DNA of 64,000 nt from Minisyncoccota bacterium (GCA_035549255.1 DASZRD010000009.1:49071-113070); one strand, 5' to 3'. Numbered from the stretch's first letter, positions 18,001 through 29,220 are shown. The notes: generated by a model from the letters alone, not told the origin. Program-made: numbers and translations.

Positions 18001-19170
18001 GATGCCGGTATTCAGCCTGGCGACATCGTTTCGGCAGATACGACGCATTTCGAGGGTGTGCGCAAGAGCAGCCCGTATGCTGATTCGCAGCTGATGGGCG
18101 TCGTCTCCACCAACCCGAGCGTCGTCATCGGTACCCCGGTCAATCAAAACGGCAATATCGTGCCGATCGCCTTGCGCGGCCGCATCCCGGTGAAGGTCAA
18201 CCTCGAGGGCGGCGATATCGCCGTGGGCGACCGGATCACGCTCTCGTCGGTGTCAGGCGTCGGCAAGAAGGCGGGTGACCTCGACCAGAGCATCGGCATC
18301 GCTCTTGAGCCGTTCACCGCGCAATCGACGACCACCTCCGTGCTCGTGTTCCTCGACATGCAGCAGGGCGACAACGTCGGCGCGCTCACTAATACTCTGC
18401 TCGGCACCTCGACCGCCACCAGCACTGCTACCAGCACGCCGCAAACAGGCTTTCTCTCGGTGCTCTTCTCCCGCATCGCGAGCTGGCTCGGGGGCGCTGG
18501 CAACGGCATCGCGAACATCTTCACGCAGACGCTCACGGCGACCGTCGTCAACGCCGATACGGTCAACACCAAGCAGCTCTGCATCACCGACGCCTCGGGC
18601 GGCAAGACCTGCGTCACCAAGGCCCAGCTCGACCAGCTCCTCCAGGGCCAGGGAGGTAGCGCGGGCTCTGGCGCAGGGTCCGGTTCAGGTTCGGGCGGCG
18701 CAGGATCGGGCAGCGGCACGACGATGCCCGCAAGCCCCGACCCTGACGCGCCGACGATCACGATCAATGGCGCCAACCCGGCGATGCTCGTGGTAGGCGA
18801 CACGTATGCCGACCTTGGCGTGACGGTGAGCGACGCGCAGGATCAGAATCTCGGCTACCTCGTTTCGCTCGACGGTGCTGCGACCACGACGCCCGACCAG
18901 ATCCATATCGACACGTCGGCCGCAGGAACGCATACCATCACGTACGTCGCGACCGATAACGACGGCAATGTCACGACCGCGCTGCGCACCGTAATCGTCC
19001 AGGATGCGGCGAGCTCGACGCCGTCCGTGCTTCCGCCGGTTGATACGGGCGATACCGGTACCACGACCGGAAGCGGCGCCGATGCGGGCGGCACGGCGAC
19101 CTCGACCGATGCCGGGGCGGGTGCCGGTACCGCACAGGGCGGCGAGGGCACGACTACTCCGGCGGAGTAA
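1..19170 (+). CDS. Giant repetitive cell-surface protein, 5'-partial; more than 6387 aa lie in the window
   Basis: The open frame continues from base 1 with no stop upstream of 7 and ends at TAA 19168-19170. It is Ser/Thr/Gly/Asn-rich. Its parts are 44-aa SQNGYLSS-DWT-FNNK repeats, an LVIVD-like propeller, repeated CGGGGSPFPFTP modules, a GS linker and an Ig-like C-terminus. Confidence 0.85.
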   Translation, partial: AVVGDNSFTFDGTTLNAPAAVFTTLTNLGSANLGTVSTGVWHGTAIADSYVADNLTISGGTINNTPIGAATPSTAVFTNATSTNATTTNFYASGQTRLGSLTGLVSANGGIVTAVATNTLGLLGSTSLSATAPLAYNSSTGVFSISQASGSQDGYLASVDWTQFNNKVSSTSLSATGPLAYNPATGVFSLDQAGTSQDGYLSSADWNVFNNKISSSSLSAAGPLSYNSSTGQFTISQASGSQNGYLSSGDWTIFNNKVSSSSLALVINQAYPFPQAGNGTSTLTQFNGGITAYASSTISALTSIFATTSSFAILNVPSALLTTNAQGQVVATSTLGVAYGGTGSSTLGGILIGNGRGSVTSANVSAPLSFSGNTLSIQAASGSQNGYLSSADWTTFNNKISSTSLSAAAPLSYNSSTGQFTISQASGSQNGYLSSSDWNSFNARLSTTTLGLFDKGYFFSTTSADYYLSQQSLVGFSTTSANYWKTQNNFFSTTSAIYFANASTTIPKTYTANTFTGAQTFQNGITTNALSVGSLTGPLQAIGGVVSSTSTLSIIYGGTGTSTPPTYGKVLLGNAQGGYDLVGTSSLGLITNNSLSAIVPLQYNTGTGVFSIQNAKADSSTLGAATFASNDFNDNGSGLISIDYANAQKATGSQAGLLASSDWNVFNNKISSSSLSGASVIAYNGTTGVISTQAGTFGGNASSVYTFPGDLVTTGTATTTNLYIGGTISGANLSSCSGASDKLLWNSSTQQFSCGTDAGASGSDVNWTHFNNSGIRVTTATDQVLIGFTSTSSLSKLEVHGGATIDNATTTNLVTTGVAYFSGNVGIGTTSPYQSLTVASGNILQVAGSNPTLATSTAVGGSTYGVYTSGNYAYVAAGSVRIVDTTQPGASKVVGSYTGTTQAQSIVVSGKYAYVGDASAGLAILDVSNPASPTLVGSLNYSTVGHPLSIALSGRYLIVPDFDSGKVSVVDIANPAAPAVVGTYTTGGAPATVALSGKYAYIGDQADGNIYIEDISNPAKPVALSPYTGLLGPQAIYISGRYAYVADIAGGLYALDISNPASVSLAGSKTGTGYYTVEVAGDYAYVTDSSGNLVVLDVHNLGSITTAGTYATGVSPRGLALSGKYAYVTSGNSTLKVVDINGAKLPAASIGTIETNSINVADAVKVGGDGFFGGGLNVGASGIFSRGGLAVLGSTTLTDLIAKNATTTNATSTNLYASSLIAGNATSTNLSVSGVASTSNLYISNLVAGALAITASGKAYSFSTSTWTFASSTLLGDSNTFSGGNKFTGNTTLANATSTNFALTNITNALLSTNANGSIIPTTISSPLTFSGNTLSIQQATASQNGYLSLTDWNTFNDKISSTSLSGASVISYDSSSGVITTQPGTFGGSGTYAFPNDVQANGNITAEVDGGASSGPNINLVNSGGFGVGGINFFTYAGQTVPSAQWEAEDVGNWTADQIFSTSVGGGTDAPLAARLIIKGTTGYVGIGTTSPLTTLSVGGNTYLGGSLTATGTVQFSNLAAGAVAATANGQLYTFSTSTWTFASSTLLGDSNTFSGNDTFTTAPKLGSLTGLVAGNSGNLYGLSTSSLNASITGQAGNVANSVTFNNGGSGASSGSTFNGSSAVTISYNTIGAVPATRNINTTFPLQGGGSLASDLTITSAFGTTTTTGLTPNQILYTNANGVLTTAASSTLNLPNAALQNSSVTVNGITCTLGSTCTVASTTLLANSNIFSGNNTFTGNTTLANATSTNLALTNITNALLSTNGSGSIIPTTVSSPLTFSGNTLSIQQANGSQNGYLSSTDWTQFNNKVSSSSLATIINSAYEFPGNATSTQLTFNGGLVATGATTTNLAVTGTASTSNLFISNLAAGALGINASGKAYSFSTSTWTFASSTLLSDSNTFSGNNKFTNPITLGTLNGPLQANNGVVSATSSVGVLYGGTGLTSAPSYGNILVGNSSGGYTLTATSSLGLASLSSFSATAPLSYDSSTGVFSISQANGSQNGYLSSVDWTAFNNKISSTSLSGGTGINYTSSTGVITNTGVIAVGPAGQTQNGTVTIASTTASFNGLTFGVQTVGAAGTLTNTPTIAGTLDNSGLTHSTIGLADANSTLTVSGSPAALGASLSATLNLAHGNIWTAASTTFVGGVTIGSATTTNLVATNATTTNLAITSLANTLLSVNAQGAVVATSSLSVNYLAGVLPVGNGGTGSSTLGGILTGNGTGQVTSAQVSSPLTFSGNTLSIQAASGSQNGYLSSTDWTTFNNKISSTSLSASAPLSYNSSTGQFSISQANGSTNGYLTSSDWTQFNAKVSSSSLALVINQAYEFPNNATSTQIAFNGGLTAAGATTTNLSVSGTASTSNLFISNLAAGALGINATGKAYSFSTSTWTFASSTLLGDNNTFSGTDTFTNAPKLSTLTGLISGNSGTLYGTATGTVSGSNGISVTAGQSIIGSGLTITATNAVADASTKGVATFAANDFNDNGSGLISIDYANGQLASGSQNGFLSNSDWNSFNSRLSTTTLGLFDKGYFFSTTSASYFLAQNQGNAFSTTSAIYFANASTTIPKTYTANTFTGAQTFQNGITTNALSLGTLSGPLQANNGVVSATSSIGVLYGGTGLTSAPSYGTILVGNSSGGYTLTATSSLGLAALSSFSATAPLQYDNTTGIFSITQANGSTNGYLSSVDWTAFNNKISSTSLSATGPLSYNPSTGVFAISQANGSTNGYLSSTDWNTFNQKVSSSSLYSYVAGNKDWQIINGALSPTTTLGIGVYASSTIGNGAQSGGLTVNGGATTTGNAYFAGNVGIGTQSPSARLDINASYTTTGFPLSVKNSGYYNAYFQGTNANNQASFYMENDRGSFASYGGFLYGGSTSGLSNLFGAPRADRLFMFADGASNLGYYVGTLTAQPFVIGTNNLERARVDGTTGYVGIATTSPLTTLSVGGNTYLGGNLTATGTVQFTNLSAGAVAATANGTLYTFSTSTWTFASSTLLGDNNTFSGNNTFTNVPKLGGLTGLVAGNSGNLYGLSTTSLNASITGQAGNVANAVTFNNSGSGASSGSTFNGSSAVTISYNTIGAQVAGTYVTSVGATYPLISSGGTAPVISSAFGTSTNWGLGANGIVVTNASGVPFIAASSTLNLPNSALQNSTITVNGIAFNLGDSKTITAASSTLLANSNTFSGNNTFTGNTTLANATSTNLALTNITNALLSTNGSGSIIPTTVSSPLTFSGNTLSIQAASASQNGYLSSTDWTQFNNKVSSSSLAAVVNQAYEFPSNATSTQIAFNGGLTATGATTTNLSVTGTASTSQLYISNLSTGGLGISSTGKVYSFATSTWTFASSTLLGDSNTFSGNNTFTNAPKLGSLTGLVAGNSGNLYGLSTSSLNASITGQAGNVANSVTFNNGGSGASSGSTFNGSGALTVSYNTIGAQVAGTYVTSVNATYPLLSSGGTAPTISTAFGTTTNTGIGSNLFIYTDNNGVFKGAASSSLNLPNSALQNSSITINTSGGLTGGAAVSLGNSISLGCQAASGSQAGCLSSTDWTTFNNKVSSSSLAALNYAAYPFYAAGNATTTLTQFNGGLTAYASSTIGNGILGLTVNGPATTTGNLVVQGSGTSTIAGSLSVSGNLNFNGNLLQNGVPFSSSQWITNGSSIYYGTGNVGIGTSTPYAKLSVAGDIVGGTINATSTTATSTIAGSFNVGNGALSYDVNSGITSINNLQLGAQTFDADAGILSWIDMPVTSASSAGTVESYSAQIDGNPLLTIYSQSDGSGGIQNAAVGIGTTSPFAMLSVQGSGYLAGSLTITGITATGTVQLTSLTGGAVAANPNGTLYTFATSTLTSASSTLLGDSNTFSGNNTFTNAPKLGSLTGFVAANNGTLYQLASSSLNLPNAALQNSSITINGTAFNLGDSKTVAAASSTLLGDTNTFSGTQNAFTNKVGIGTTSPRTTLQVAAGGSGILPQASSIAAFESNSNGYISLLTPDSAENGLLFGSPTGGNADAGIIYNNNTNLRGLTFRTGGNNTHMVIDSSGNVGIGTTSPGATFAVAGDGYLTGALTVGGQTTLAASLNGLLKATNGVVSAAVAGTDYSNFAYPFPLTGNATSSLTQFNGGLTAYATSTIGNGAQAGGLTVSGGATTTGNAYFGGNVGIGTNAPTSALTLALGNSIALYNTADQTTNYERGQIDWTSNALRIETVGGGSGSNSRSVILSSGGANLVTASAGTVKVTLNGGTSGVGPGVLTNGSFNGASTNQVVQSIAPTFNQSGTSGYTALLIQPTETAVGSGNKYLIQAGTSTAATLFAVDNAGNITTNITGSTQCLHVNSSGVISGTGADCGAGGSPFPFTPLALGNATSTLLLLNNGVIAAASSTIGNGTAAGGLTINGSATSTGTTTIQNAFAVTGTNGGVPVSGAGTRLEFIPNLGALRAGQVSSTQWDASNIGTSSFATGLDTTASGGYSAALGYRATASGVGSFAGGYFTDCGMGIISSGIGSFAYGYLNHGVTGCAFTQIQASGNGSVAMGYALAGRTITATQSGSIALGYANNGSITSSGIGSFAVGDGNITSSGSGSVALGYGESGLLSATGQGAVAIGANVNATQNNALAFGSSFTNNIASTFQVGFSATPTLTVTATNTGIGTTSPYAKFSISANGSDTNSTLFAIASSTSGTATSTLFAVSNIGTITTTLGAGAVGVNSLGQLYSFATSSGSAASSTLLADYNTFSHLQQFNGGFTAYASSTIGNGAQIGGLTVSGGATTTGNAYFAGNVGVGTVSPGSTLDVGGTAQLRGAGGGTGLYVNSSGNVGIGTTGQNAKLEIRQDGNGVQTQLVLRNNQGSSNGATSRLGFGVYRDVDATALGAAIDAITTAGIPNGDNAEGAILAFSTTKDGTSGLQERMRILNTGNVGIGTKNPQATLDVQGTASSSNLFVTNAATTTSLAITGLTSQSCIGTNSQGQVVAGTCGGGGSPFPFTPSALGNSTSTLLLLNNGVIATASSTIGNGTATGGLTVNGNSTTTGNVYVAGAIGIGTKSPWASLDVNGSIAIANNNGGSTNKLYLASGDGTHYIYSTGSGVGGNNTYFGEWGGNYHFLDTSNSSEPVTITGGNLGVGTTTPTAKLSLQYNSGDTQTTLFAIASSTGSTAVNLFSVDNTGLTTIGNPTGTGDANIQFGGDATAWSVGNYGGDNSFRIASSTNLANNVAFEVTKAGTASTTNLTISSLGASAGSCLTTDSSGNVTTTTCGGGGSPFPFTPSALGNSTSTLLLLNNGVIAAASSTIGNGNQNGGLTVSGGATTTGNAYFAGNVGINNTLAVGGNVVTSGAQIDSAGVIYSHGTGGISFALNSTGSNYGTIQNDAPDTWSLGTNSMLTGLGTHVLTWTKAGNIGIGTSTPASLLTVSNSNTGTLTYDGTSLTVSPVGTTTTAGAVTITPGAAGGPGLGIKGFNGNSIAQIFTSSGSLRTLQITNTGAGGLQTVFAGGTGKNLIGIGTTSPFAPLSIAANGGDTNPTLFAISSSTAAFATTTLFSVSNTGSTTIANGVNITSGCYAVNGTCLSTGGSGGSPFPFTPSALGNSTSTLLLLNNGVIASASSTIGNGTAAGGLTVNGNSTTTGSLYTGGGITIAGTNPSFVSLSENNGGVSFINYLGSGSDGTGTYITNTSNHSLFLGTNNTTKLTIAAGGNVGIGSTTPGTLLSIGSVNGINFTTATSTFNSTGGINITNGCYAVNGVCLTTGGGSSQWTTSGSSIYYNTGSVGVGTSSPFAKFSVQQNYGDTQTTLFQISSSTATGGATANSFFSVDNTGLTTIGDPSGTGDANFQFANDNHAWSVGYYAGDNSFRIASGTSLASNPAISVDKNGTTTISNGVNIQSGCFSVQGTCLSFSSGAADSQFVSTDGQANITTSTTSLATISITPSTATGDVFVSAKVSMSSKTATDFITSIAVRDTTCTGTIFAQAMASSTSASGSNGSTAFANGLENNPGTTSQTYALCASDTSGTNPATYFLSALVINPGADVAELYSTLDAGIQPGDIVSADTTHFEGVRKSSPYADSQLMGVVSTNPSVVIGTPVNQNGNIVPIALRGRIPVKVNLEGGDIAVGDRITLSSVSGVGKKAGDLDQSIGIALEPFTAQSTTTSVLVFLDMQQGDNVGALTNTLLGTSTATSTATSTPQTGFLSVLFSRIASWLGGAGNGIANIFTQTLTATVVNADTVNTKQLCITDASGGKTCVTKAQLDQLLQGQGGSAGSGAGSGSGSGGAGSGSGTTMPASPDPDAPTITINGANPAMLVVGDTYADLGVTVSDAQDQNLGYLVSLDGAATTTPDQIHIDTSAAGTHTITYVATDNDGNVTTALRTVIVQDAASSTPSVLPPVDTGDTGTTTGSGADAGGTATSTDAGAGAGTAQGGEGTTTPAE
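382..777 (+). repeat. Three tandem 132-bp (44-aa) repeats 'LSA..PL.YNSSTG.F.ISQASGSQ(N/D)GYLSS.DWT.FNNK.SS.S'. More copies are dispersed at about 1080-1320, 3960-4090, 5320-5460, 5890-6080, 6680-6930, 7930-8220, 9630-9770 and 10540-10640.
   Basis: Found by direct inspection of the translated giant ORF and its DNA. Confidence 0.8.
2560..3440 (+). repeat. Eight '(S/A)G.YAYV...L.(I/V)(L/V)D(V/I)SNPA.P..VG.Y' blades, matching the LVIVD-repeat beta-propeller pattern, inside the giant protein
   Basis: The unit recurs every ~40 aa: SGNYAYVAAGSVRIVD..., SGKYAYVGDASAGLAILDVSNP..., SGRYLIVPDFDSGKVSVVDIANP..., SGKYAYIGD..., SGRYAYVADIAGGLYALDISNP..., AGDYAYVTDSSGNLVVLDV..., SGKYAYVTSGNSTLKVVDI... Confidence 0.6.
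14851..14958 (+). repeat. ~100-bp near-identical intragenic direct repeat, copy 1 (GGSPFPFTPSALGNSTSTLLLLNNGVIA module)
   Basis: An ~81-bp stretch 'ggctcaccattcccattcacgccgtctgcgcttggcaactcgacttcgac(t/c)ctgcttctcctcaacaacggcgtcattgc' starts at 14851, 15682 and 16621 and differs at only one base in the third copy. A diverged copy sits at ~12982. Confidence 0.85.
15682..15789 (+). repeat. ~100-bp near-identical intragenic direct repeat, copy 2
   Basis: See copy 1. Confidence 0.85.
16621..16730 (+). repeat. ~100-bp near-identical intragenic direct repeat, copy 3
   Basis: See copy 1. Confidence 0.8.
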
Positions 19171-19183
19171 TATATAAAGATCC

Positions 19184-20158
19184 ATGAAAAAATGGCTGAT
19201 CATCGGTTTGCTTATCCTCGCCGTCGGGGTGTCCCTGGGTTTGTGGGCGTCGCGCATGCTTGTAAGGAGCGCGCCTTCCTGCTCGGCAGAGTATCCGTTG
19301 CTGGACGACTCCGTCGGATGCGACGATGCGCAGCCCGTCATAACCAAGACGAGCTATACCGCGCTGCAGCAGAGCCTGCTTGCATACATACAAAATGAGA
19401 AGAGTTCGGGGGACACGGCCGATATAGCGATCTTTTTCCGCGACCTTAAGGACGGACCGGTGTTCGGCATCAACGAGCTTGAGGATTTTACGCCCGCGAG
19501 CCTGCTGAAGCTCCCGCTGGCGTTCGCCTATCTCAATGTCGCCGACGAGTACCCGGATTATCTGCAGAAGGAGCTCTTCTATACCGGTACCTCGTCCGTG
19601 ATCGATCAGAATTTCCCGCCCCCCGTCTCCGTCAAGGCCGGGCAGCCGTATACGCTCGAAGAGCTTCTGCAGTACATGATTTCGTACTCCGACAATGGCG
19701 CCTACCAAATGCTCAACGATTATCTCGCTGGCGACCCGAGCCGCAAGGTCCTCCTCGACCAGACCTTCCAGGAGCTCGGTATCATCGACCCCGCGAGCGA
19801 GGATGCGAACACGGTCAGCGTGCGGAGCTATGCGTCGCTCTTCCGGCTGCTCTACAGCGCGGCGTATATCAGCCCCGACCACTCGCAGCTCCTCCTCCAG
19901 TGGCTCTCGGACTCGTCCTTTACCCAGGGGCTGGTTGCGGGCGTACCCGAAGGGGTCACCGTCGCCCACAAATTCGGCGAGCGCTCATTGCCGGACGGCA
20001 CGAAGCAGCTCCATGACTGTGGCATCGTCTATTTTCCGGAGAACCCCTACATCTTGTGCGTCATGACGAAGGGGAGCGACTGGACCAAGCTTGAAGGCGT
20101 GTTGCGGACCGTCTCGCAAATGGTCTATGCGGAAGTCTTATCGAGGAAGCAGAACTAG
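19184..20158 (+). CDS. Membrane-anchored serine hydrolase with a class A beta-lactamase / PBP-like fold
   Basis: It has an N-terminal TM helix, an S-x-x-K motif (PASLLKLP), an SDN motif (YSDNGA) and a K-x-G motif (HKFGE). Its start is 13 nt after the giant gene's stop. Confidence 0.6.
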   Translation: MKKWLIIGLLILAVGVSLGLWASRMLVRSAPSCSAEYPLLDDSVGCDDAQPVITKTSYTALQQSLLAYIQNEKSSGDTADIAIFFRDLKDGPVFGINELEDFTPASLLKLPLAFAYLNVADEYPDYLQKELFYTGTSSVIDQNFPPPVSVKAGQPYTLEELLQYMISYSDNGAYQMLNDYLAGDPSRKVLLDQTFQELGIIDPASEDANTVSVRSYASLFRLLYSAAYISPDHSQLLLQWLSDSSFTQGLVAGVPEGVTVAHKFGERSLPDGTKQLHDCGIVYFPENPYILCVMTKGSDWTKLEGVLRTVSQMVYAEVLSRKQN

Positions 20159-20199: not shown

Positions 20200-20208
20200 T
20201 GCGATAAT
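20200..20208 (+). promoter_or_regulatory. Candidate extended -10 promoter element TGcGATAAT, 11 nt upstream of the ATG of cassette 1
   Basis: TG at 20200-20201 is followed by GATAAT at 20203-20208. The same architecture sits at 24745-24753 before cassette 2. Confidence 0.4.
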
Positions 20209-20219
20209 AATAGAACGAT

Positions 20220-23200
20220 ATGCAGGGCAGGGCAGGGCGCATCATAAAAAAACCGATACAAAGATTCTTCGCGAGCATGCTTGTGCTCGCGCTTGTCGCG
20301 GAAGCCTACGCCCCGCTGCCAACCGTCCTAAAACTTCCTCTTTTTAAGGAAGGTACGGTGCACGCAAGTTCAACGATAGTTACTTACCTTACATCCGGTA
20401 CTTCCTGGACTGTACCTCTCGACTGGAACTCCGCGAGCAATACCATCGAAGTCATCGGCGGCGGTGGGGGTGGTGGTAATGGTGCAAGCGGAGTTGCTGG
20501 TGGCGGTGGAGGAGGTGGCGGCGCATATTCAAAAACCTCGAACCTTTCCTTGGTTCCCGGTAACAGTGTCGCCTATGGCATTGGGACTGGCGGTAGCGCC
20601 CAAACATCTGGCGGCGATACTTTTTTTAACAGAACCTCGGGTTCAGCTAATACTTGTGCAGACGTATCGTCTGTGTGTGCAAAAGGGGGTTCCGGTGCCA
20701 CGAGCGCGACTGGCGCAGGCGGCGGTTCATCTGGAAGCGGCCGAGGAAGCACATTGTATTCTGGTGGCACCGGCGGCACGGTCCCCAGCGGCGGCTCGAT
20801 GGGTGCCGGGGGCGGCGGGGCAGCAGGCCTTAACGGGGCGGGAAAAAACGGCGGCACACCTACCGGCGGCAACCCTGTGGGCGGTTCAGGCGGCGGCGGC
20901 GCTGATAACGGGGCTAATGGTGCTGCCAATACTACAACCACTGGTGGCGCAGGTGGGGCTAACTATCTTGGCTCTGGAGGTGGGTCTGGGGGTACTACGG
21001 GAGTTGGCGGCACAGGTAGTAACGGCGGTGGAGGCGGAGGTGGCGGAGCGGCTACCTCTAATACTTCTTTTGCTGGTGGTGCTGGCGGCGCGGGTATCGA
21101 GTGGGATGCATCACATGGTTCGGGAGGTGGAGCAGGCGGAGCTGCCATGAACGATACTGGCTCTACCGCTGCTACAAATGGCTCTACTGGAGGTCTATAT
21201 GGCGGCGGTGGATCTGGTGGCGCCGCGACCTCCCATGGTGGCTCGACCGGCGGCTCTGGCGCCCAGGGCCTCATCGTCATCACGTATACGCCGGTTGTTC
21301 AAATTTCAACGATCTTTCTTACTTCCGGCACATCCTGGACCGTACCGAACGATTGGAATTCGTCTAATAATACTGTCGAAGTCATCGGCGGCGGTGGCAG
21401 TGGTGGTGCCGCTAAGAATAATGGTGTTAGTTCGGGATCCGGTGGTGGTGGTGGCGGCTATGCAAAAATAACGAATCTAAATCTTACTCCCGGGACTTTG
21501 GTTACTTATCAAGTTGGGGCTGGCGGTACTGCAGTTACTGCCACTGCCGGAAGCGGAAGCGCAGCTGATGTACCAGGGAATAATGGTACAGCCTCATACT
21601 TTAATGGCACGTCTGCCGCTGCTTCAAGTGTCGCAGCAAATGGCGGATCGGGGGGAGGAGCAATCGGCACCTCAGGATCTCTTAGCGGAGGTGCGGGTGG
21701 CACTGTCGTTGTTGGTTCGGGGTATAGTGGAGGCGCCGGGGGTTTAATAAGTGGTAGCGGTTCAAGTGCTCGCGGTACCGGCGGCGGCGGCGCAGGAGGA
21801 TCAAATGGAGCTGGAAATTCGGGTGCGACTTTGTCGGCTACAGGTGCAAGCGATGGGGGTTCCGGCGACGCCGGCTTCGGCGGTTCTTCGACGGGGACAG
21901 CGGGGGCCTTAAATAATACTGCTAGTTCTGGCGGCAACGGGACCGAATGGAATTCTGCGCCCGCGTATGGTGCTGGTGGCGGTGGCGGCGGAGCATATGC
22001 GACTGGGGTAGCTTCTATTGCTGGTGGTGATGGAGGCACCTATGGTGCGGGTAGCGGTGGAGCGGCAAACGATAGAAATTCTTCCGGCTCGGCAACATCT
22101 GGTGCCGGACAACCGGGCATCATCGTCATCACGTATACGTCCTATGTTCCACCCTCCCGCATCATCCGCCTCTTCGGCTCGTATACAAGCGCGCCGATGC
22201 ATATTTACCTTACGACGACCGGCTCGGGCACGTGGACGGTCCCGAGCGACTTTACTTCCAACGGCAGCAGTATCGAAGTCATCGGAGCCGGCGGAGGTAC
22301 GGCAAATACCAACGGCCCCTGCTGCGGCTACGGAGCATACGGGAGCGGCGGCGGCGCATATTCTGAAATTTCGAATGTCTCGCTTACGCCGGGCACTACG
22401 GTCGGCATTAATGTCCCGGCCGGAGGAGCCCCCGGCAGCAGCGGCGGGGATACGTGGCTGTGCAGCTCAACTTCGGGATGTTCATCAATAACTGATACGA
22501 ATGTCATTGTTGGCGCCAAGGGCGGCACAGTGGGGAATCAATCATCGGGCTTAGGTGGCGCATATACATCTGGTGTAGGCACCATAAGATATTCCGGCGG
22601 CAACGGCGGCGTGGGTATCGACACGAATGGCAGCGGCGGCGTCGATTATGCCGGCGGCGGAGGCGGCGCGGGAGGGCCGAACGGCAATGGCGCAAATGGA
22701 GGCAATGGTAGCAGCCTTTCAGAATTCGCTGGCGGCGGCGGTGGCAACGGCGGAGGGTCTGCAGGCCAAGCAGCTTCAACCATAGCGGGAGGCAGTGGCG
22801 GTAATAACTCTCTTGGTTCGGGAGCCGGGGCCGGAGGCAGCAGCAGCAACTCCAATACCTGCAGCGCAGGTACAAATGGCGGTGGTGGTGGCGGAGGCGA
22901 TGGAGGCGCTGGCTGTACTGGCGGTAATGGTACAGAGTGGGACGCCTCTCATGGCTCCGGAGGCGGAGGCGGAGGCGGTTCGACAGGCGGGAACGGCGGT
23001 ACCTATGGCGGCGGGGCAGGTTCTTCAGGCACTACTCCTACCGCAACAGGCGGTCAGGGCATCATTGTCATCACGTACTCACGGCCCAATGTGCGGACAT
23101 TGCGGATTATAGGAGGCGCTGCGCAGCAAATCCTTGGGGGTACTAAGCAAGTAGTTCTTTCGGCCAATCCCGGAGGCGGAAATCAGACATGGATCGTGCC

Positions 23201-24164
23201 AGGAGACTTCAGCTCCCTCATCAAAGTTGAGTGTATTGGGTCTGGAGGGCATGGAGGACAAGGGAATGCTAGTAATGCCGGGGGTGGTGGCGGCGGCGGT
23301 GGAGCTTATGCGTCAACCACGGCGGTTACTGGCCTTACTCCCGGTGCCTCGATATTGTATGCCGTGGGCGCATCAGCAACAACGACTTCGGCAACGAACC
23401 CAGTCGCTAATGCTCGAGAAACGTACTTTAATGGCACCGCATCTTCTACTGCAGCGCTTACCTGTGATTGGGGAAGAATGGGTGGTGTTCCGACAGGCGG
23501 TATTGCAGGCTCGACCGCTTTCTCTGTTCCTTCCTCGAATTCTTCAACGGGCGGTTCTTATGCTGGCGGCTCTGGCGGTGGCGGTTCGAGTGGAACTACG
23601 GGTGGCGGTGGCGGTGGCGGTGGAAGCGCGGGTCCTATTGGAATAGGAAAGTCAGGTGGCACCGCTCAAACCTTAACTAACTTAGGAAGTGCCGGCGGCG
23701 GCGGGGGTTCTAATGGCGGCTCTTCAACTGCTGGGGGTTCACCAAGTTCGGGCGGTCCTGGTGGCAATGGTGGTAATAACACTTCTGGTACAGGAGGTGG
23801 TAGTGGGACGGCAGCATCAATGGGGGGCGCAAGTGCTAGTGCTACGGACGGTTCTAACGGCGGCGGCGGCGGCGGTTCAGGTGGTGCGAATACTACATCT
23901 GGTGCAGGTGGTAGTGGTTCATGCGATACGACTCTTGATGGTAGTACGAGTGGCGCGTGCGGCGGCGGCGGCGGCTCAGGATTCCCAAACGGAGGTACCC
24001 CCGGCCAGCCGGGTGCTGGAGGCGCCTTCGGCGGCGGCGGCGGCGGCGCGAGTTCTCAGATATCACCTCTTGTTCCTGGAGCATCAGGGGGTCAAGGCAT
24101 CATTGTAATTACCTACTCGTCCATTAGTTACCGCCCCGTCATCAAGCTGTATCAATCGCAATAA
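20220..24164 (+). CDS. Gly-rich secreted multi-module protein (1314 aa) with four tandem ~300-aa modules
   Basis: An N-terminal hydrophobic segment is followed by four modules. Each starts '..TSG(T)SWTVP.DW.S..N.IEVIGGGGGG', carries a central 'S.ISN.SLTPGT.V.Y.VG.GG' and ends 'GQGIIVITY(T/S)'. About 45% of residues are Gly. Confidence 0.8.
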   Translation: MQGRAGRIIKKPIQRFFASMLVLALVAEAYAPLPTVLKLPLFKEGTVHASSTIVTYLTSGTSWTVPLDWNSASNTIEVIGGGGGGGNGASGVAGGGGGGGGAYSKTSNLSLVPGNSVAYGIGTGGSAQTSGGDTFFNRTSGSANTCADVSSVCAKGGSGATSATGAGGGSSGSGRGSTLYSGGTGGTVPSGGSMGAGGGGAAGLNGAGKNGGTPTGGNPVGGSGGGGADNGANGAANTTTTGGAGGANYLGSGGGSGGTTGVGGTGSNGGGGGGGGAATSNTSFAGGAGGAGIEWDASHGSGGGAGGAAMNDTGSTAATNGSTGGLYGGGGSGGAATSHGGSTGGSGAQGLIVITYTPVVQISTIFLTSGTSWTVPNDWNSSNNTVEVIGGGGSGGAAKNNGVSSGSGGGGGGYAKITNLNLTPGTLVTYQVGAGGTAVTATAGSGSAADVPGNNGTASYFNGTSAAASSVAANGGSGGGAIGTSGSLSGGAGGTVVVGSGYSGGAGGLISGSGSSARGTGGGGAGGSNGAGNSGATLSATGASDGGSGDAGFGGSSTGTAGALNNTASSGGNGTEWNSAPAYGAGGGGGGAYATGVASIAGGDGGTYGAGSGGAANDRNSSGSATSGAGQPGIIVITYTSYVPPSRIIRLFGSYTSAPMHIYLTTTGSGTWTVPSDFTSNGSSIEVIGAGGGTANTNGPCCGYGAYGSGGGAYSEISNVSLTPGTTVGINVPAGGAPGSSGGDTWLCSSTSGCSSITDTNVIVGAKGGTVGNQSSGLGGAYTSGVGTIRYSGGNGGVGIDTNGSGGVDYAGGGGGAGGPNGNGANGGNGSSLSEFAGGGGGNGGGSAGQAASTIAGGSGGNNSLGSGAGAGGSSSNSNTCSAGTNGGGGGGGDGGAGCTGGNGTEWDASHGSGGGGGGGSTGGNGGTYGGGAGSSGTTPTATGGQGIIVITYSRPNVRTLRIIGGAAQQILGGTKQVVLSANPGGGNQTWIVPGDFSSLIKVECIGSGGHGGQGNASNAGGGGGGGGAYASTTAVTGLTPGASILYAVGASATTTSATNPVANARETYFNGTASSTAALTCDWGRMGGVPTGGIAGSTAFSVPSSNSSTGGSYAGGSGGGGSSGTTGGGGGGGGSAGPIGIGKSGGTAQTLTNLGSAGGGGGSNGGSSTAGGSPSSGGPGGNGGNNTSGTGGGSGTAASMGGASASATDGSNGGGGGGSGGANTTSGAGGSGSCDTTLDGSTSGACGGGGGSGFPNGGTPGQPGAGGAFGGGGGGASSQISPLVPGASGGQGIIVITYSSISYRPVIKLYQSQ

Positions 24165-24166
24165 CT

Positions 24167-24733
24167 ATGTCGCGCACGCAACGAGCAATCATTCGCATCA
24201 TAGTGACGCTTCTTGGCATAGGCATTGTCGTTGCCGCTTTGTGGTACGGCATCCAATTTTTTACGCATCACAGCAGTTCAAATACAAATGTTCCGTTCGG
24301 CCAGATGACGACGCCGCCCGTGCAGCAGGCGCCCGCCGGGTACAAGGAATATCACAGTGATTTGTATCGCTTCTCGATCATCTATCCGGATGACCTAGCC
24401 TTTTTAGCCTATCCTGAAGCTGCGGGCGGTGGGACATTCACCTTCGAGAACGACAGCCAGGGTCGTGGCTTTCAGGTCTATGTAACGCCATTTCAGGGCT
24501 CGCAGATCACCGACGAACGCTTCAAGGCTGACGACCCCTCCGGCGTGCGCGACAATTTGCAGAATATCACCGTCGATGGCGCCGTCGGCGCGTCATTCTA
24601 TGGCAAGGACAAGGCGCTCGGCGACACGGCCGAGATCTGGTTCCTCCGTGAGGGCTACTTGTATGAAGTCACCACGCTCAAGGCGACCGCCGACCTCTTG
24701 ACCTCGGTCATGCAGACGTGGAAGTTCTACTAG
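24167..24733 (+). CDS. Small membrane-anchored partner protein (188 aa), paralog of 27605..28174
   Basis: Its start is 2 nt after the upstream stop. It has an N-terminal TM helix. Motifs conserved with the paralog are YH.D.Y.FS..YPD.L, FTFE.D, QITD..FK.DDPSGVRD, LGDT.E.WF.R.G.LYEVTT and a C-terminal MQTWKFY. Confidence 0.75.
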   Translation: MSRTQRAIIRIIVTLLGIGIVVAALWYGIQFFTHHSSSNTNVPFGQMTTPPVQQAPAGYKEYHSDLYRFSIIYPDDLAFLAYPEAAGGGTFTFENDSQGRGFQVYVTPFQGSQITDERFKADDPSGVRDNLQNITVDGAVGASFYGKDKALGDTAEIWFLREGYLYEVTTLKATADLLTSVMQTWKFY

Positions 24734-24744
24734 CGCTCCGCTCG

Positions 24745-24753
24745 TGCGATACT
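24745..24753 (+). promoter_or_regulatory. Candidate extended -10 promoter element TGcGATACT, 11 nt upstream of the ATG of cassette 2
   Basis: Spacing and sequence match the element at 20200-20208. It lies in the 31-nt gap between the partner-1 stop and cassette 2. Confidence 0.4.
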
Positions 24754-24764
24754 AAAGGGACGTC

Positions 24765-27608
24765 ATGCAGGGCAGGAGACAGACAGTCTTTCATATTCTA
24801 AAAAGAGCATCGGCTGGTTTTCTTATCAGCGCGCTTATACTTGCGGCGTATGTCTCGATCCCAGGCATAGCGCCGCTCCCAAGCGCCTACGCAGCGGTTT
24901 GTGCCGGCGGCACGTACTCCGGCGGCATTTGCACTATTATGCTCACCTCCGGCAGCACCTGGACGGTGCCGAGCGATTGGGGTTCTCCTAATACTATCGA
25001 AGCAATCGGTGGTGGCGGAGGCGGAGGCGGAGGAGGCCGCGGGGGCGGGGGCGGGGGCGCAGCTGCTTTGATATCGAATCAATCGCTTACTCCTGGTACG
25101 ACGCTTGGTATAAATATAGGCGCGGCCGGTGCAGCTGGCGGAACGAACACTGACGGAGGTACTGGTGGCGATACGTGGCTCTGTAGTTCGACTTCGAGCT
25201 GCAGCTCGATTTCCGACACGAATGTTATCGTCGGTGCTAAGGGCGGCTCCGGTTCATCAAGCACTTCCGGCGGCGCAGGGGGTGTCGGCTCGAGCGGCGT
25301 TGGAGCGACAAAGAACTCTGGTGGTGCGGGTGGTAATGCAACCACTACTGGTACGTACAAAGGTGGCGGTGGTGGCGGTGGCGTGGGGGGCCTCGGCGGC
25401 GTGGGCGGTACTGGCGGCGCAGGTAATGGCGGTGGCGGTGGCGGTGGCGGTGCCGCTCTGGGCGGCATAGGCGGTATTGGTGGTGCCGGAGGTTTTGGCG
25501 GCTCCGGTGGTGGCGGAGGTGGTGGCGGTTCTGGAGGTATGAATGGTGGGCAGGGAGGTGCTGGTGGAAGAGGACCTAATAATGATGGCGGTGGCGGGGG
25601 CGGTGGCGGCATCGGAAGCAGCAGTGGTTCTGGAGGTAATGGCGGTATTGGAGGCGATTCGGGTGGCGGTGGCGGTGGCGGTGGCGGCGCTGCAGTTGGT
25701 GGTTCCGGAGGCAATGGTGGCGATGCTGCTGCTTTTGGCGGCTCTGGCGGCGGCGGCGGCTCCGGTGGACCTGGTGGCGGTGCTGGCGGTGCTGGCGGCG
25801 GTGGGGCAAGTTTTGAGCCTTTTGGCGGTGGCGGCGGAGGCATAGGAGGTACTGGTGGCACCGGTGGAGTTGGAGGGACTGCAAATACTCAATCTGCTGG
25901 CGGTGGCGGCGGTGCAGCTTCTTCAGGCGGTGCAGGCGGTGCGGGTGGTGCGGGTGGCACTAGCGGTATTGGCGGTGGCGGTGGCGGCCAGGGTGGTTCT
26001 GGCGCTGGTGGCGGTAGCGGTGCTACTGGCGCACAAAACGGCGGTGGTGGTGGCGGTGGTGGTTCGTCAGGCGCTGGCGGTAATTCAACTTCTTCAACGG
26101 GAGGCGCAGGAGGTTCCGGCGGTGGCGGCGCGGGTGGCACTGGCAATACAAATCCTGGTGGTAATGGCAGTGATGCTATTGGCCAAGGCGGCGGAGGTGG
26201 CGGTGGCGGTAATAATACTGGTAGTGGTACCGGAGGTACCGGAGGTAATAGTGGCGGCGCAGGTGGAGCAAGTCAAAGCAGTAGTTGCGGTGGTGGCGGA
26301 GGTGGTGCAGGCCCTGGCGGAGGCGGAGGTGGAGGATGTGTGATAGGCGGCGCAGGTAGTGCGGGACCTAGTACAACTGGCGGTGGCGGAGGTGGTGGTA
26401 GTTTCGGTTCAGGTGTTGGGGGCGGCAGAGGGGGTAATTCTGGTGGTTCTGGTGGTATTGGTAATGGCGGTGGCGGTGGCGGTGGCCAAGGCGGTGGCGG
26501 TGGCGGTGGTTATAACGGCGGCGGCGCGGGAAGTAGCGGCCCTGGATCAAGCGGCGGCGGCGGAGGTGGCGGCGAGGAAGCTACTCCGGGTGGTGCTGGT
26601 GGAAATAGCGGCGGTGCAGGCGCGAATTATGGCGGTGGCGGTGGCGGTGGCCAAGGCGGTGGCGGTGGCGGTGGCGCAGCAGGTAATGATGGCAGTGGGG
26701 CTATTGGCAGTACTCCTGGCGGCGGCGGAGGTGGTGGAAGCCTTAATTCTTCCATACTAGAAGCTGGTGCCGCAGGCGGCCAAGGGGAAATAATCATTAC
26801 GTATACTCCGCTCGTTCGCGCTCGCACCATTCTTCTTTTCGGTTCGATAACGGGTGGCGTGACGCCCATCCGCTCTTTGCGCGTGATTGGTTCGGGTGGT
26901 ATCTCTCATGCCCAAAAAACAGTCACTCAAAACTACGATGCGCAGGTCGATACTTCGCAGTCAGTATTTGGTGGTGGAAGCGCGCTCTTTGACGGCACCA
27001 ACGACAACCTCCAGCTCGACAGCAGCCCGGATTTTACCTTTGGCACCGGCGACTTCACGATAGATTTCTGGATGCGGCCCAACGTCGTCAATACCGACAT
27101 GGTGCTCTACGACGGCCGGCCGGCCGGCACCAACGGCGCCTACCCGACCATCTATCTCAGCAATACCAACCACATCTCATACCTTGCAAACAACGCCACC
27201 AGGATCACCGGCACTACCAACATCGCGGCCGGCACCTGGTACCATGTCGCTCTTGCGCGTAGCGGCACGGCGACCAAACTATTTCTCAACGGGGTGCAAG
27301 AGGGCTCGACGTATACCGACAGCACGAATTATCTGCCCATGGACACGACGCCGGGGCTGTCGCGACCGCTCATCGGCATACGGTCGACCGACCTCTTGAG
27401 CGGTTTCAACGGCTGGATTGACGAGCTGCGCGTGAGCAAGGGCATCGCCCGCTGGACAACCACGTTTACTCCGCCAAGCGCTGCCTATGTGCCCGATGCG
27501 TATACCGTACTTCTTTTGCATATGGATGGCACCGATGGCCAAGAGACATTTACCGATGCTACTGGAAATCTTCTTAACCGCCAGATAATCATTTATCCTC
27601 TGCAATGA
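24765..27608 (+). CDS. Gly-rich secreted protein (947 aa): one hyper-expanded module plus a C-terminal LamG/concanavalin-like domain
   Basis: It shares the 'MQGR' start and TM segment with the 20220 gene. Its single module runs from 'LTSGSTWTVPSDWGSPNTIEAIGGGGGG' through ~600 aa of poly-Gly to 'GQGEIIITYTP'. The C-terminus carries LamG signatures: 'FTIDFWMRPN', 'WYHVALARSG..KLFLNGV' and 'GWIDELRVSKG'. Confidence 0.8.
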   Translation: MQGRRQTVFHILKRASAGFLISALILAAYVSIPGIAPLPSAYAAVCAGGTYSGGICTIMLTSGSTWTVPSDWGSPNTIEAIGGGGGGGGGGRGGGGGGAAALISNQSLTPGTTLGINIGAAGAAGGTNTDGGTGGDTWLCSSTSSCSSISDTNVIVGAKGGSGSSSTSGGAGGVGSSGVGATKNSGGAGGNATTTGTYKGGGGGGGVGGLGGVGGTGGAGNGGGGGGGGAALGGIGGIGGAGGFGGSGGGGGGGGSGGMNGGQGGAGGRGPNNDGGGGGGGGIGSSSGSGGNGGIGGDSGGGGGGGGGAAVGGSGGNGGDAAAFGGSGGGGGSGGPGGGAGGAGGGGASFEPFGGGGGGIGGTGGTGGVGGTANTQSAGGGGGAASSGGAGGAGGAGGTSGIGGGGGGQGGSGAGGGSGATGAQNGGGGGGGGSSGAGGNSTSSTGGAGGSGGGGAGGTGNTNPGGNGSDAIGQGGGGGGGGNNTGSGTGGTGGNSGGAGGASQSSSCGGGGGGAGPGGGGGGGCVIGGAGSAGPSTTGGGGGGGSFGSGVGGGRGGNSGGSGGIGNGGGGGGGQGGGGGGGYNGGGAGSSGPGSSGGGGGGGEEATPGGAGGNSGGAGANYGGGGGGGQGGGGGGGAAGNDGSGAIGSTPGGGGGGGSLNSSILEAGAAGGQGEIIITYTPLVRARTILLFGSITGGVTPIRSLRVIGSGGISHAQKTVTQNYDAQVDTSQSVFGGGSALFDGTNDNLQLDSSPDFTFGTGDFTIDFWMRPNVVNTDMVLYDGRPAGTNGAYPTIYLSNTNHISYLANNATRITGTTNIAAGTWYHVALARSGTATKLFLNGVQEGSTYTDSTNYLPMDTTPGLSRPLIGIRSTDLLSGFNGWIDELRVSKGIARWTTTFTPPSAAYVPDAYTVLLLHMDGTDGQETFTDATGNLLNRQIIIYPLQ

Positions 27609-28174
27609 GAAAGCTCGTTCTAATTTCTGTAGGAGTTTTTACGGTAGCTATATTAGGCCTGCTTGGTGTCTGGTATATGCAATCTCCGGCGATTTCATCT
27701 GTCGCAATAGATCTAGGCACTTCTTCAGGGGCGTCTTCCACAGTCCCGTCAACTACTCCGCTCGTGCGCGACGTGCCTGCGGGCCAGAACGAGTATCATA
27801 ATGACGCCTATCACTTCTCTGTGCTCTATCCGGACAACCTCAAAGTTGCCGAGCAAGACAATGGCGCAAGCGCGACGTTCACCTTCGAGGATGATAAAAA
27901 CGTGCAGGGCTTCCAGCTTTTCGTGCAGCCGTTCTCGGGCACGCAGATAACTGATGCGCAATTTAAACAGGACGATCCGTCCGGGGTGCGCGACGACCCG
28001 CAGAACTTCACGCTCGACGGCGCTTCTGGCGTGGCCTTCTATAGCCAGGATCATTTGCTCGGAGACACGCGCGAGATGTGGTTCATTCGTGGCGGCTTCC
28101 TTTATGAGGTGACGACCTTCAAAGAGCAGGCTGACTGGCTCGACCAGATCATGCAGACGTGGAAATTCTATTAG
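27605..28174 (+). CDS. Small membrane-anchored partner protein (189 aa), paralog of 24167..24733
   Basis: An ATGA overlap joins its start to the upstream stop. It is ~55% identical to the first partner over ~130 aa. Confidence 0.75.
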   Translation: MRKLVLISVGVFTVAILGLLGVWYMQSPAISSVAIDLGTSSGASSTVPSTTPLVRDVPAGQNEYHNDAYHFSVLYPDNLKVAEQDNGASATFTFEDDKNVQGFQLFVQPFSGTQITDAQFKQDDPSGVRDDPQNFTLDGASGVAFYSQDHLLGDTREMWFIRGGFLYEVTTFKEQADWLDQIMQTWKFY

Positions 28175-28191
28175 CAGTTTAAAATTGGCGG

Positions 28192-28197
28192 TATACT
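28192..28197 (+). promoter_or_regulatory. Candidate -10 box TATACT 6 nt upstream of the gap ATG, implying a leaderless-like transcript
   Basis: 'ggcggTATACTactagtATG'. No Shine-Dalgarno sequence is visible. Confidence 0.3.
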
Positions 28198-28203
28198 ACT
28201 AGT

Positions 28204-29220
28204 ATGGCAGTACGCGTAGCAATCAACGGCTTTGGGCGCATCGGGCGCGCATTCCTGCGCGCATCGTGGGGCGACCCGGATGTCGAGGTTGTCGCGGTCA
28301 ATGACTTGGGCGACATCGGCAACCTCGCGTACCTCCTCCAATACGACAGCGTGTACCGTACATTTAGCCAAAAAGTTTCGGTAGAGAATGGCCAGCTCGT
28401 CGTCGGTGGCAAGCAAATCCATGTCACAGCAGAGAAAGATCCGACCAAATTGCCATGGAGCTCGCTCAACATCGATGTCGCAGTCGAGTCGACCGGCGTA
28501 TTCGACAGCTACGAGAAGGCGAGCGCGCATCTCACTGCCGGCGCCAAGCACGTAGTTATCTCGGCGCCGGTCAAGGACGAGCTTGCGGGCGCCGGGACTG
28601 TGCTCATGGGCGTCAATGAGGAAAGATTGAGCGTCTGTCAGGTGACCTCCAACGCATCGTGCACGACCAACTCCGTCTCGCCCGTTATCGCGATCCTCGA
28701 CGAGAAGCTCGGCATCGAGAAGGCGCTTCTTAATACGACGCATGCCTACACTGCGACGCAGTCGATCGTCGACTCTCCGGTCAAGGGCAGCGATTACCGT
28801 CGCGGCCGGGCCGCGGCGCAGAACATGAGCCCATCCTCGACCGGCGCCGCAATCGCTGTCACCAAAGCGTACGAGCAGTTGACGGGAAAATTTGATGGCA
28901 TCTCGATCCGCGTGCCGGTTGTCGCAGGCTCGATCGCCGACGTTACCTTTATCGCCAAGCGCGACACGACTGCCGAGGAGGTGAACAAGATTTTGGAGGA
29001 CGCCGCCAAGGAAGAGCGCTGGCAGGGGATATTCGATGCCACGCACGAGCAGCTCGTCTCGGGCGACATTATCAGCAACCCGCACGCGAGCATTGCCGAC
29101 CTCGGCATGACGCGCGTTGTCGGCGGCAACCTGGTGAAGGTCCTCGCCTGGTACGACAACGAGTGGGGCTATACGCAGACGCTCGTCAGGCACGTCAAGA
29201 AAGCCGGCGGTAAAGCTTAA
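28204..29220 (+). CDS. gap: Glyceraldehyde-3-phosphate dehydrogenase
   Basis: It carries the INGFGRIGR NAD-binding motif and the active-site motif SNASCTTN, over 338 aa. Confidence 0.9.
   Translation: MAVRVAINGFGRIGRAFLRASWGDPDVEVVAVNDLGDIGNLAYLLQYDSVYRTFSQKVSVENGQLVVGGKQIHVTAEKDPTKLPWSSLNIDVAVESTGVFDSYEKASAHLTAGAKHVVISAPVKDELAGAGTVLMGVNEERLSVCQVTSNASCTTNSVSPVIAILDEKLGIEKALLNTTHAYTATQSIVDSPVKGSDYRRGRAAAQNMSPSSTGAAIAVTKAYEQLTGKFDGISIRVPVVAGSIADVTFIAKRDTTAEEVNKILEDAAKEERWQGIFDATHEQLVSGDIISNPHASIADLGMTRVVGGNLVKVLAWYDNEWGYTQTLVRHVKKAGGKA

Follow-up and report, generated by a model that had tools for sequence, protein, structure and literature searches.

The 64,000-nucleotide stretch of DNA analysed here, referred to throughout as the window (GCA_035549255.1, DASZRD010000009.1:49071-113070), comes from a Minisyncoccota bacterium whose metagenome-assembled genome is annotated as Candidatus Paceibacterota. 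Between positions 20,200 and 28,174 it carries two consecutive gene pairs, each composed of a gene for a very large, putatively exported protein (bigA and bigB) and a gene for a small membrane protein (partnerA and partnerB). We put the odds at roughly one in two that each pair is a surface cassette, in which the C-terminal tail of an exported binding protein is recognised by the membrane-anchored PsbP-like ectodomain of the partner, with tethering or assembly of the large protein as the presumed outcome. Gene pairs of this kind are widespread in Paceibacteria-type bacteria of the Candidate Phyla Radiation (CPR). The genomic evidence that the tail and the partner form a unit is strong, and the mechanism is what we infer.

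Linkage between the C-terminal tail and the partner gene

Related loci were gathered by using the partner alignment to scan a single genome from each GTDB species, which gave 51 loci; labels of the type L001-L060 denote collected loci related to the window cassette. The 51 loci carry the labels Parcubacteria-group, Paceibacterota, Adler-, Kaiser-, Giovannoni-, Vogel-, Niyogi- and Portnoybacteria, together with some "uncultured" labels of other phyla that are unconfirmed. The first-pass annotation of the window had taken a giant glycine-rich protein and its partner to be the conserved pair, and the partner homologues in L001, L002/3 and L005-7 do sit after glycine-rich open reading frames (ORFs). 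Fifty-three partner genes have an upstream ORF on the same strand, and when these ORFs were scored with a hidden Markov model (HMM) of the four bigA modules, a glycine-rich module protein was found upstream of only 21 partner genes, the other 32 upstream genes being devoid of the module. The pairing of partner and glycine-rich protein as the conserved link thus failed a check defined beforehand, in that most partner homologues are unlinked to glycine-rich proteins. Inspection by eye shows a conserved tail at the end of the upstream protein in about 40 of the 53 cases (36 by regular expression, minus one false positive and plus five that were missed). As far as the sequences tell, the conserved link is that of the partner with a short C-terminal tail, whatever passenger domains precede it. 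The passengers comprise glycine-rich domains, DUF2341 with LamG, BNR with fn3, repeated Fn3-like domains (..YYFRAYATNSAGTGYG..) and domains without a family. The finding is in this respect more general than the initial reading, whose emphasis on a "Gly-rich protein plus partner" was misplaced.

The tails are 10-24 amino acids (aa) long and consist of alternating basic and hydrophobic residues of the beta-strand type with Gly turns; they contain no transmembrane (TM) segment, and one Arg is invariant among them. Two principal forms recur, type 1 (..SRKMRLFEGFxIKFxSGRIILxQ) and type 2 (..GRIIRLxGGVRLxGGVRL). The bigA tail, SSISYRPVIKLYQSQ (24123..24161, plus strand), is a short "T4" form ending in ..YRPVIKLYQSQ and resembles the tails of L059 (HPNLKVLSQ) and L001. 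The bigB protein ends in NRQIIIYPLQ (27576..27605, plus strand), and the same tail, as NRQIIIYPQ, is found in L005 and L060, where it follows LamG in the former and stands directly after a glycine-rich module in the latter. In L059, HPNLKVLSQ follows a passenger with DUF2341/LamG-like sequence, recognised by eye. The short tails of L005, L059 and L060 each adjoin a close relative of the window partners, and the window-type short tail is itself, by this comparison, portable. In 10 sampled proteins the tail falls outside every Pfam and NCBIfam match. In the AlphaFold2 (AF2) model of bigA the tail is without secondary structure, the last two 10-residue blocks having a mean predicted local distance difference test (pLDDT) score of 84 and 65, the lower value applying to the final 9 residues.

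The tail motif also occurs away from the C-terminus: it stands directly after the signal peptide in L041 (4849-5799) and lies internally, between repeated passenger units, in L030 (3408-5918) and L031 (4237-5904), with the partner gene still downstream in all three. The motif therefore behaves as a portable tag rather than as a signal that needs a free C-terminus.

The association holds in both directions. Of the 35 ORFs in the partner-centred loci whose tail strictly fits type 1 or type 2, 34 are followed by a partner at a distance of no more than 1.2 kb. The converse scan used a degenerate DNA pattern for MRLFEGFxIKF and was independent of the partner; it yielded 12 metagenome contigs, in every one of which the motif lies about 21 aa before an ORF ends, and the partner gene follows directly downstream (E<=1e-63) in all 11 contigs that have downstream sequence. 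The two genes are closely spaced, with stop-to-start gaps of at most 20 nucleotides (nt) in 52 of 67 cases and ATGA-type overlaps in 11, although the analysis assigns the start to the earliest possible codon, which biases it towards short gaps. As a rule there is one partner gene for each tail-bearing gene, also where pairs occur in tandem (three pairs in L008; two each in L009, L020, L042 and the window). The gene pair is thus a real, conserved and tightly coupled unit, as had been proposed, and the small protein is indeed its conserved component and the large protein its variable one.

The partners also follow their tails in sequence. Tail type agrees between a partner and its nearest relative in another locus in 48 of 54 cases, and passenger class in 38 of 54; the tandem partners of L008 and of L020 fall into different clades that match their respective tails. 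On this sequence comparison, partner clades track the tail type and not the genome, which suggests that recombination has repeatedly changed the passengers while tail and partner were kept together. The two elements further differ in charge: the partner ectodomains are all acidic, with a mean net charge of -7.7, and for the upstream proteins the mean is +3.0 over the last 24 aa, the preceding 200 aa being slightly acidic.

The partner protein

The two window partners are annotated as hypothetical proteins (VG934_03330 and VG934_03340). The partnerA protein (24167..24733, plus strand; 188 aa) consists of an N-terminal TM anchor, a Ser/Thr/Pro linker and a predicted PsbP-like ectodomain at aa ~56-188; partnerB (27605..28174, plus strand; 189 aa) has a TM helix at aa 2-25, a linker and a predicted PsbP/Mog1-like domain at aa ~58-189. 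The sequence identity between them, first given as ~55%, is slightly lower, at 49% by BLASTP (E 3e-62) and 51% by MAFFT. The conserved blocks that were originally picked out by eye (FS..YP, F..D.PSGV, GDT.E.WF, LYEVTT and TW.F) proved to be invariant or near-invariant columns of the family. Across 23 partner sequences, 19 columns are invariant, and in a broader alignment of 51 sequences the invariant residues are D123, F145, E157, W159 and E168.

An AF2 model of the partner, computed from the 23-sequence alignment (pLDDT 86), contains the TM helix at aa 2-25, a low-confidence linker of ~30 aa and a beta-rich domain with two helices. The fold matches listed for the model are BT_1490 (score 11.7), cyanobacterial PsbP (11.2), TplEi (10.5), PnsL1 (10.2), Tsi3 (9.5), Mog1 (9.3), LpqN (9.1), PA0094 (9.0), SciW (7.9) and DcrB (7.0), all of which belong to the PsbP/Mog1/DUF1795 superfamily. 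In the model the domain is predicted to form an antiparallel beta-sheet with flanking helices that can be superposed on PsbP or Mog1. Contrary to the first impression that the small protein fits no known family, the partner is PsbP-like. We take PA0094 to be the type VI secretion system chaperone EagT6, and SciW to be an Eag-type chaperone. Characterised members of the PsbP/Mog1/DUF1795 superfamily act by binding a partner protein or a lipid.

The family is large. A word-indexed search yielded only 23 relatives, and a profile search of 1.84 billion cluster representatives returned 2,286 clusters at 50% identity with E<=1e-3, 395 of them with E<=1e-30, and the members are nearly all 170-240 aa long. 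The window partners themselves have no match in Pfam, NCBIfam, PHROG or PADLOC. Among 51 family members, 21 show weak matches to PsbP_2 (PF18933; best E 1e-4) and six show PsbP matches. The window partners reach no Pfam or NCBIfam threshold, unlike members of PsbP_2, and they differ from the PsbP, Mog1, DUF1795, LpqN and DcrB families in their N-terminal TM anchor, their predicted extracytoplasmic location and their pairing with a conserved C-terminal beta-tail. No relative of the partner was found among the 2.9 million viral contigs of IMG/VR, and a search of BFVD gave only two weak matches to the partner, both "lipoprotein".

Modular composition of the large proteins

The bigA protein (20220..24164, plus strand; 1314 aa) starts with a Sec-type signal peptide (aa ~1-29), which is followed by four modules of the TNF-like plus glycine-rich type and by the short C-terminal tail. 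The bigB protein (24765..27608, plus strand; 947 aa) has a signal peptide, a single module, a tail-like linker (RARTILLFGSITGGVTPIRSLRVIGSGG), a LamG domain at aa 743-892 and the C-terminal tail. The two proteins thus differ in module number and in C-terminal domain, as was initially observed. At both N-termini, AxA-like sites come after a basic n-region and a hydrophobic h-region, and sequence inspection revealed no evident LPXTG motif, C-terminal TM segment or lipobox in either protein.

The module boundaries of bigA are marked by W.VP at aa 63, 373, 672 and 991 and by IVITY at aa 352, 635, 949 and 1295. The modules had been thought to match no known family, a view that comparison with PF21722 (Gly_rich_2) and with the phage Pam3 gp24 protein refutes. 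Module 2 (aa 361-641; 21300..22142, plus strand) matches positions 3-225 of the 226-position PF21722 profile with 27.4 bits, compared with a gathering threshold of 24.3 (E 4e-6). Under the cutoff, module 1 (aa 51-358; 20370..21293, plus strand) aligns to positions 4-222 of 226 with 19.1 bits (E 0.0014) and module 4 (aa 976-1301; 23145..24122, plus strand) to the full profile with 14.5 bits. Module 3 (aa 659-955; 22194..23084, plus strand) has no match to PF21722 and aligns with the other modules, as does the bigB module (aa ~55-682), which also lacks a PF21722 match and includes a very long Gly tract. A profile built from 22 modules of the window and related loci matches the tail-fibre protein of the cyanophage Pam3 (PDB 7yfw/7ypx) with E 4e-11, the alignment spanning the N-terminal strands and the C-terminal GKQGIIIVQY strand. 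The module is predicted to share the fold of a TNF-like beta-sandwich capped by a glycine-rich lattice.

In bigB, ~500 residues at aa ~150-650 (window 25200-26700) consist of 55-70% glycine, and the middle of this region is unmatched by the module HMM. Tandem Repeats Finder shows only short GGN repeats, so that simple repeat arrays in the DNA do not account for the Gly tracts; the tract could represent either a much enlarged glycine-rich lattice or a disordered spacer. Strands resembling the tail serve as inter-module linkers in both bigA and bigB, in the former as ..PPSRIIRLFGSY.. after module 2 and ..VRTLRIIGGAAQQILGG.. after module 3. The LamG (concanavalin-A-like) domain of bigB (26991..27440, plus strand) matches PF13385 with E 2e-19 to 2.5e-20, and its best PHROG matches are baseplate-wedge and virion-structural families, with E down to 5e-48.

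In Pam3, a lattice of glycine-rich motifs caps a TNF-like sandwich at the gp24 tip; this unit resembles S16 gp38 and the ligand-binding domain of ALK, and its variable distal part has been proposed to recognise the host receptor (PMC9608196). The tips of Pam3 gp24, S16 gp38 and Bxb1 gp33, the glycine-rich domain of ALK/LTK and PF21722 share with the window modules the signature ..W.VP..., GGGGxGG and ..GxGIIVITY. Compared with the phage tips, the window domain occurs in a cellular protein with a signal peptide, in up to four tandem copies or expanded to ~630 aa, and the window proteins lack the helical baseplate-docking shaft and possess instead a C-terminal tail and a non-phage partner. On these sequence features, we take the large proteins to be cellular proteins that are exported through Sec and composed of receptor-binding domains of the phage type.

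Gene organisation and start regions

All four ORFs lie on the plus strand at the coordinates originally reported. The start of partnerA is 2 nt past the bigA stop, and the bigB stop and the partnerB start overlap as ATGA. The tandem duplication first described is not a recent one; each cassette has closer relatives in other genomes, and we thus regard the two, on sequence grounds, as old paralogous lineages.

The large genes share a start arrangement of the form TGCGATA[AC]T-N11-ATGCAGGGCAGG, which was confirmed in both. Extended -10-like elements, TGCGATAAT (20200..20208, plus strand) and TGCGATACT (24745..24753, plus strand), lie 11 nt upstream of the bigA and bigB starts, respectively, and after the 11-nt spacer both are followed by the identical 12-nt start ATGCAGGGCAGG; no Shine-Dalgarno sequence lies between the element and the start of bigA. 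The pattern TGCGATAMT occurs at only two sites in the 64 kb, where 0.94 would be expected by chance, and two or more sites were obtained in 24 of 100 shuffles, so that the count alone is not significant; the non-random part is the identical spacing to an identical 12-nt start. A sigma-70 scan found no -35/-10 pair at either element, and a promoter reading of these elements thus rests on position and not on statistics. Among the related loci, a TANNNT hexamer resembling a -10 element, often with an upstream TG, precedes the tail-bearing gene in ~14 of 37 loci, starting 11-15 nt from its ATG and without a Shine-Dalgarno sequence, compared with ~3 of 37 by a rough estimate of chance. These include the window (20200-20219 and 24745-24764), L002, L008, L009, L010, L015, L017, L020 (both cassettes), L024, L032 and L041, among others. 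Such hexamers close to the ATG, in the absence of a Shine-Dalgarno sequence, suggest leaderless or very short-leader mRNAs for the tail-bearing genes.

Proposed mode of action and alternative explanations

The mechanism that we favour, at the probability of about 50% given above, would operate as follows. The product of the first gene would be a modular binding protein, exported through Sec, with a short basic tail at its end that forms beta-strands. The second, translationally coupled gene would encode a single-pass membrane protein of N-in/C-out topology, with an acidic PsbP/Mog1-like ectodomain carried on a stalk of ~30 aa. The ectodomain would bind its cognate tail 1:1, probably by beta-sheet augmentation and charge complementarity, and this binding would either retain at the cell surface a protein that has no anchor of its own or pass it on in the course of assembly. 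With tail and partner travelling together, the passenger domains before the tail would be freely swappable. A wider proposition, possible but on balance doubtful, is that the Paceibacteria own a lineage-wide, undescribed form of surface display, distinct from sortase/exosortase sorting and from phage fibre chaperones, in which a portable, basic beta-strand tag of 10-24 aa is read 1:1 by a dedicated, membrane-anchored PsbP-like receptor encoded directly downstream.

Several points weigh against docking of tail and partner. Signal peptides and topology were assigned from visual inspection and the AF2 helix only. The window tails are short and atypical, with one strand and weakly basic character, and the family-level argument is extrapolated to them. 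The 1:1 rule has exceptions: in L045 (4054-5789) two consecutive tail-bearing genes share a single partner, and in L056 (1240-2391) an ORF with a type-1 tail has no partner within 1.5 kb. For about a quarter of the partner genes the adjacent upstream gene does not encode a recognisable tail; some of these cases involve inserted genes or possible frameshifts. Unrelated genes recognised by eye between the tail gene and the partner are NYN/LabA-like in L016 (4520-5083), a Walker-A GKT protein in L029 (4833-5981) and a small secreted protein in L012 (5473-5943), so that the pair can evidently be split. Co-clustering of tail type and partner clade would also be expected from plain co-inheritance of adjacent DNA, linkage by itself being able to produce part of the signal, and the bias of the gap analysis has been mentioned above.

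The closest rival, which we consider rather unlikely, is that the partner is an extracytoplasmic folding or assembly chaperone that binds the exported protein transiently and then releases it. The gene order is the same as that of Pam3 gp24 (fibre) followed by gp25 (chaperone), with a small gene right downstream of the gene for a glycine-rich receptor-binding protein; the window modules are homologous to gp24, a 1:1 stoichiometry is plausible as it is for gp25 and Mu Tfa, and the 1:1 translational coupling fits such a role. Folding and trimerisation of Pam3 gp24 require gp25, a cytoplasmic, Mu Tfa-like chaperone with a beta-sandwich and a helical trimerisation domain, which embraces the glycine-rich tip (PMC9608196). 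The window partner, however, bears no likeness in fold or sequence to Tfa or gp25; it is PsbP-like, has no PHROG match and no relative on viral contigs, and its membrane anchor and stalk would be unusual for a releasing chaperone. It also tracks the tail and not the glycine-rich fold, most partners being found beside LamG, BNR, Fn3-like or unknown passengers. The initial idea of an undescribed system, which was to fall if the modules mapped to a characterised phage tail-fibre family with a known chaperone, is partly weakened, since they do map confidently to such a fibre tip; the partner, however, has a different fold, lacks PHROG or viral-contig relatives and is membrane-anchored.

An alternative that we judge unlikely is that the basic amphipathic tail anchors the protein by itself, through anionic lipids or wall polymers, and that the PsbP-like protein acts as a sensor or serves in envelope biogenesis or lipid handling, like LpqN or DcrB. 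The tails are indeed basic and amphipathic, and a gene of the beta-lactamase fold (penicillin-binding-protein-like) recurs near the cassettes. Self-anchoring would nevertheless leave unexplained why each cassette has its own partner copy (up to three tandem pairs, with clades by tail type), why the genes are coupled by ATGA-type overlaps and why the ectodomains are uniformly acidic.

That the pair is a polymorphic toxin with its cognate immunity protein, a layout to which it was first likened, can be all but set aside: a small protein does follow a large secreted one, but neither large protein nor any of 10 sampled relatives contains a toxin, peptidase, nuclease or other enzymatic domain (Pfam and NCBIfam show only Gly_rich_2 and LamG in the window, and DUF2341, LamG, BNR and fn3 in the relatives), the C-termini are LamG or other binding modules followed by a tail of 10-22 aa, a conserved small and a variable large protein reverse the co-variation of toxin and immunity protein, PADLOC gave no match for any of the four proteins, and the partner fold is common to many non-immunity proteins. 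It is just as improbable that the region derives from a phage or prophage and encodes tail fibres with their assembly proteins: the best structural and PHROG matches of the modules and of LamG do lie in phage tail proteins, but the large proteins begin with Sec-type signal peptides and are devoid of the helical shaft by which Pam3 gp24 docks to the baseplate, the flanking genes (a glyceraldehyde-3-phosphate dehydrogenase-like ORF and the beta-lactamase-fold gene) are cellular, the IMG/VR contigs hold no partner relative, and no other phage genes lie beside the cassettes examined.

Comparison with known systems

Short C-terminal tags on unrelated surface proteins, with a genomic link to a membrane protein, are a feature that the cassettes share with the LPXTG/sortase, PEP-CTERM/exosortase, GlyGly-CTERM/rhombosortase and MYXO-CTERM/myxosortase systems (bioRxiv 10.1101/2023.06.07.544157). 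Unlike the C-terminal sorting signals, the tail has no hydrophobic TM segment and can also be N-terminal (in the mature protein) or internal. In contrast to the sortase-type systems, the partner is not a recognisable protease or transpeptidase, and there is one per substrate and not one per genome. A classical C-terminal sorting signal was therefore rejected, given that the tripartite signal of motif, TM segment and basic residues is absent and that each substrate has its own partner.

Two other systems invite comparison. The Eag chaperones (DUF1795) are encoded beside their client and bind a short segment of it. In the cohesin-dockerin system, small portable tags on cellulosomal enzymes dock onto a scaffoldin, and the cassettes resemble it by functional analogy, in that a portable C-terminal tag is proposed to dock non-covalently on a cell-anchored domain. 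They differ from it in that the folds are unrelated, calcium-binding repeats are absent, and pairing is 1:1 rather than of many tags per scaffoldin.

The module thus belongs to a known domain family and the partner to a known fold superfamily (PsbP/Mog1), with no curated family of its own. Their combination, a portable basic beta-tail with a dedicated PsbP-like membrane protein, paired 1:1 and represented by thousands of clusters in one CPR lineage, is described in none of the libraries and papers that could be searched; the literature results listed include no paper on PF21722, on PsbP in Patescibacteria or on polyglycine in the CPR, and no sorting signal of Patescibacteria. There is a real chance that the cassette is a distinct system.

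Genomic context

Directly upstream of bigA, a class-A beta-lactamase-fold protein with an N-terminal TM segment (19184..20158, plus strand; PF13354, E 6e-36) is encoded. PF13354 homologues are found beside the cassettes in 10 other loci (L005, L029, L038, L047, L048, L049, L050, L052, L056 and L059), where they closely precede the large gene or closely follow the partner. This protein, recurrent and non-obligatory, may be an optional third component or merely a cell-envelope neighbour. As regards the earlier suggestion of a dedicated cell-contact locus, the cell-surface look of the region is supported, and it is described by no curated family or paper among those that could be searched.

A giant ORF of >6387 aa (window 7-19170) runs off the start of the window. 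Five LVIVD repeats (PF08309, E 8e-52) were recognised in it, along with a bacterial surface Ig-like domain at the C-terminus and a motif without a Pfam family match, "..SQNGYLSS.DW..FNNK..", that recurs many times. Motifs of this giant protein, e.g. "..GRVPVKV...G.I..GD.L..S...G..MKA", are shared with a protein of >1883 aa in L054 (2-5650), which has no recognisable tail and is followed by the most distant partner relative, labelled as Portnoybacteria. Directly downstream of partnerB, a glyceraldehyde-3-phosphate dehydrogenase-like ORF (28204-29220, plus strand; MAVRVAINGFGRIGR...) was recognised by eye, and a long antisense ORF overlapping it (28171-29193, minus strand) is probably spurious. 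Genes of mobile elements occur near some cassettes, namely a Y1 transposase (a weak match) in L059 (1700-2416) and a phage integrase in L002 (10852-11442). No Rfam or tRNA features were found in the region.

Implications for the biology of Paceibacteria

CPR bacteria (Patescibacteria) are thought to live attached to host cells, and little is known of how their surface binding proteins are displayed and exchanged. The cassettes provide a testable handle on this question, in the form of ~2,300 clusters of PsbP-like membrane proteins, each paired with a tail-carrying surface protein, and many of these surface proteins share the receptor-binding fold with which phages recognise their hosts. Even if the docking is not real, the annotation is corrected, the modules being PF21722/Pam3-gp24-like and the partner PsbP-like. 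If it is real, the docking of tail and partner would represent a new principle of protein anchoring or assembly, and the tail would offer a sequence marker by which the surface proteome of uncultured Paceibacteria could be catalogued. Real docking would also reveal a cellular use of phage-type glycine-rich adhesin tips, and under the wider proposition of lineage-wide surface display, host-dependent cells could swap glycine-rich tips, LamG lectins and BNR propellers before a constant docking module.

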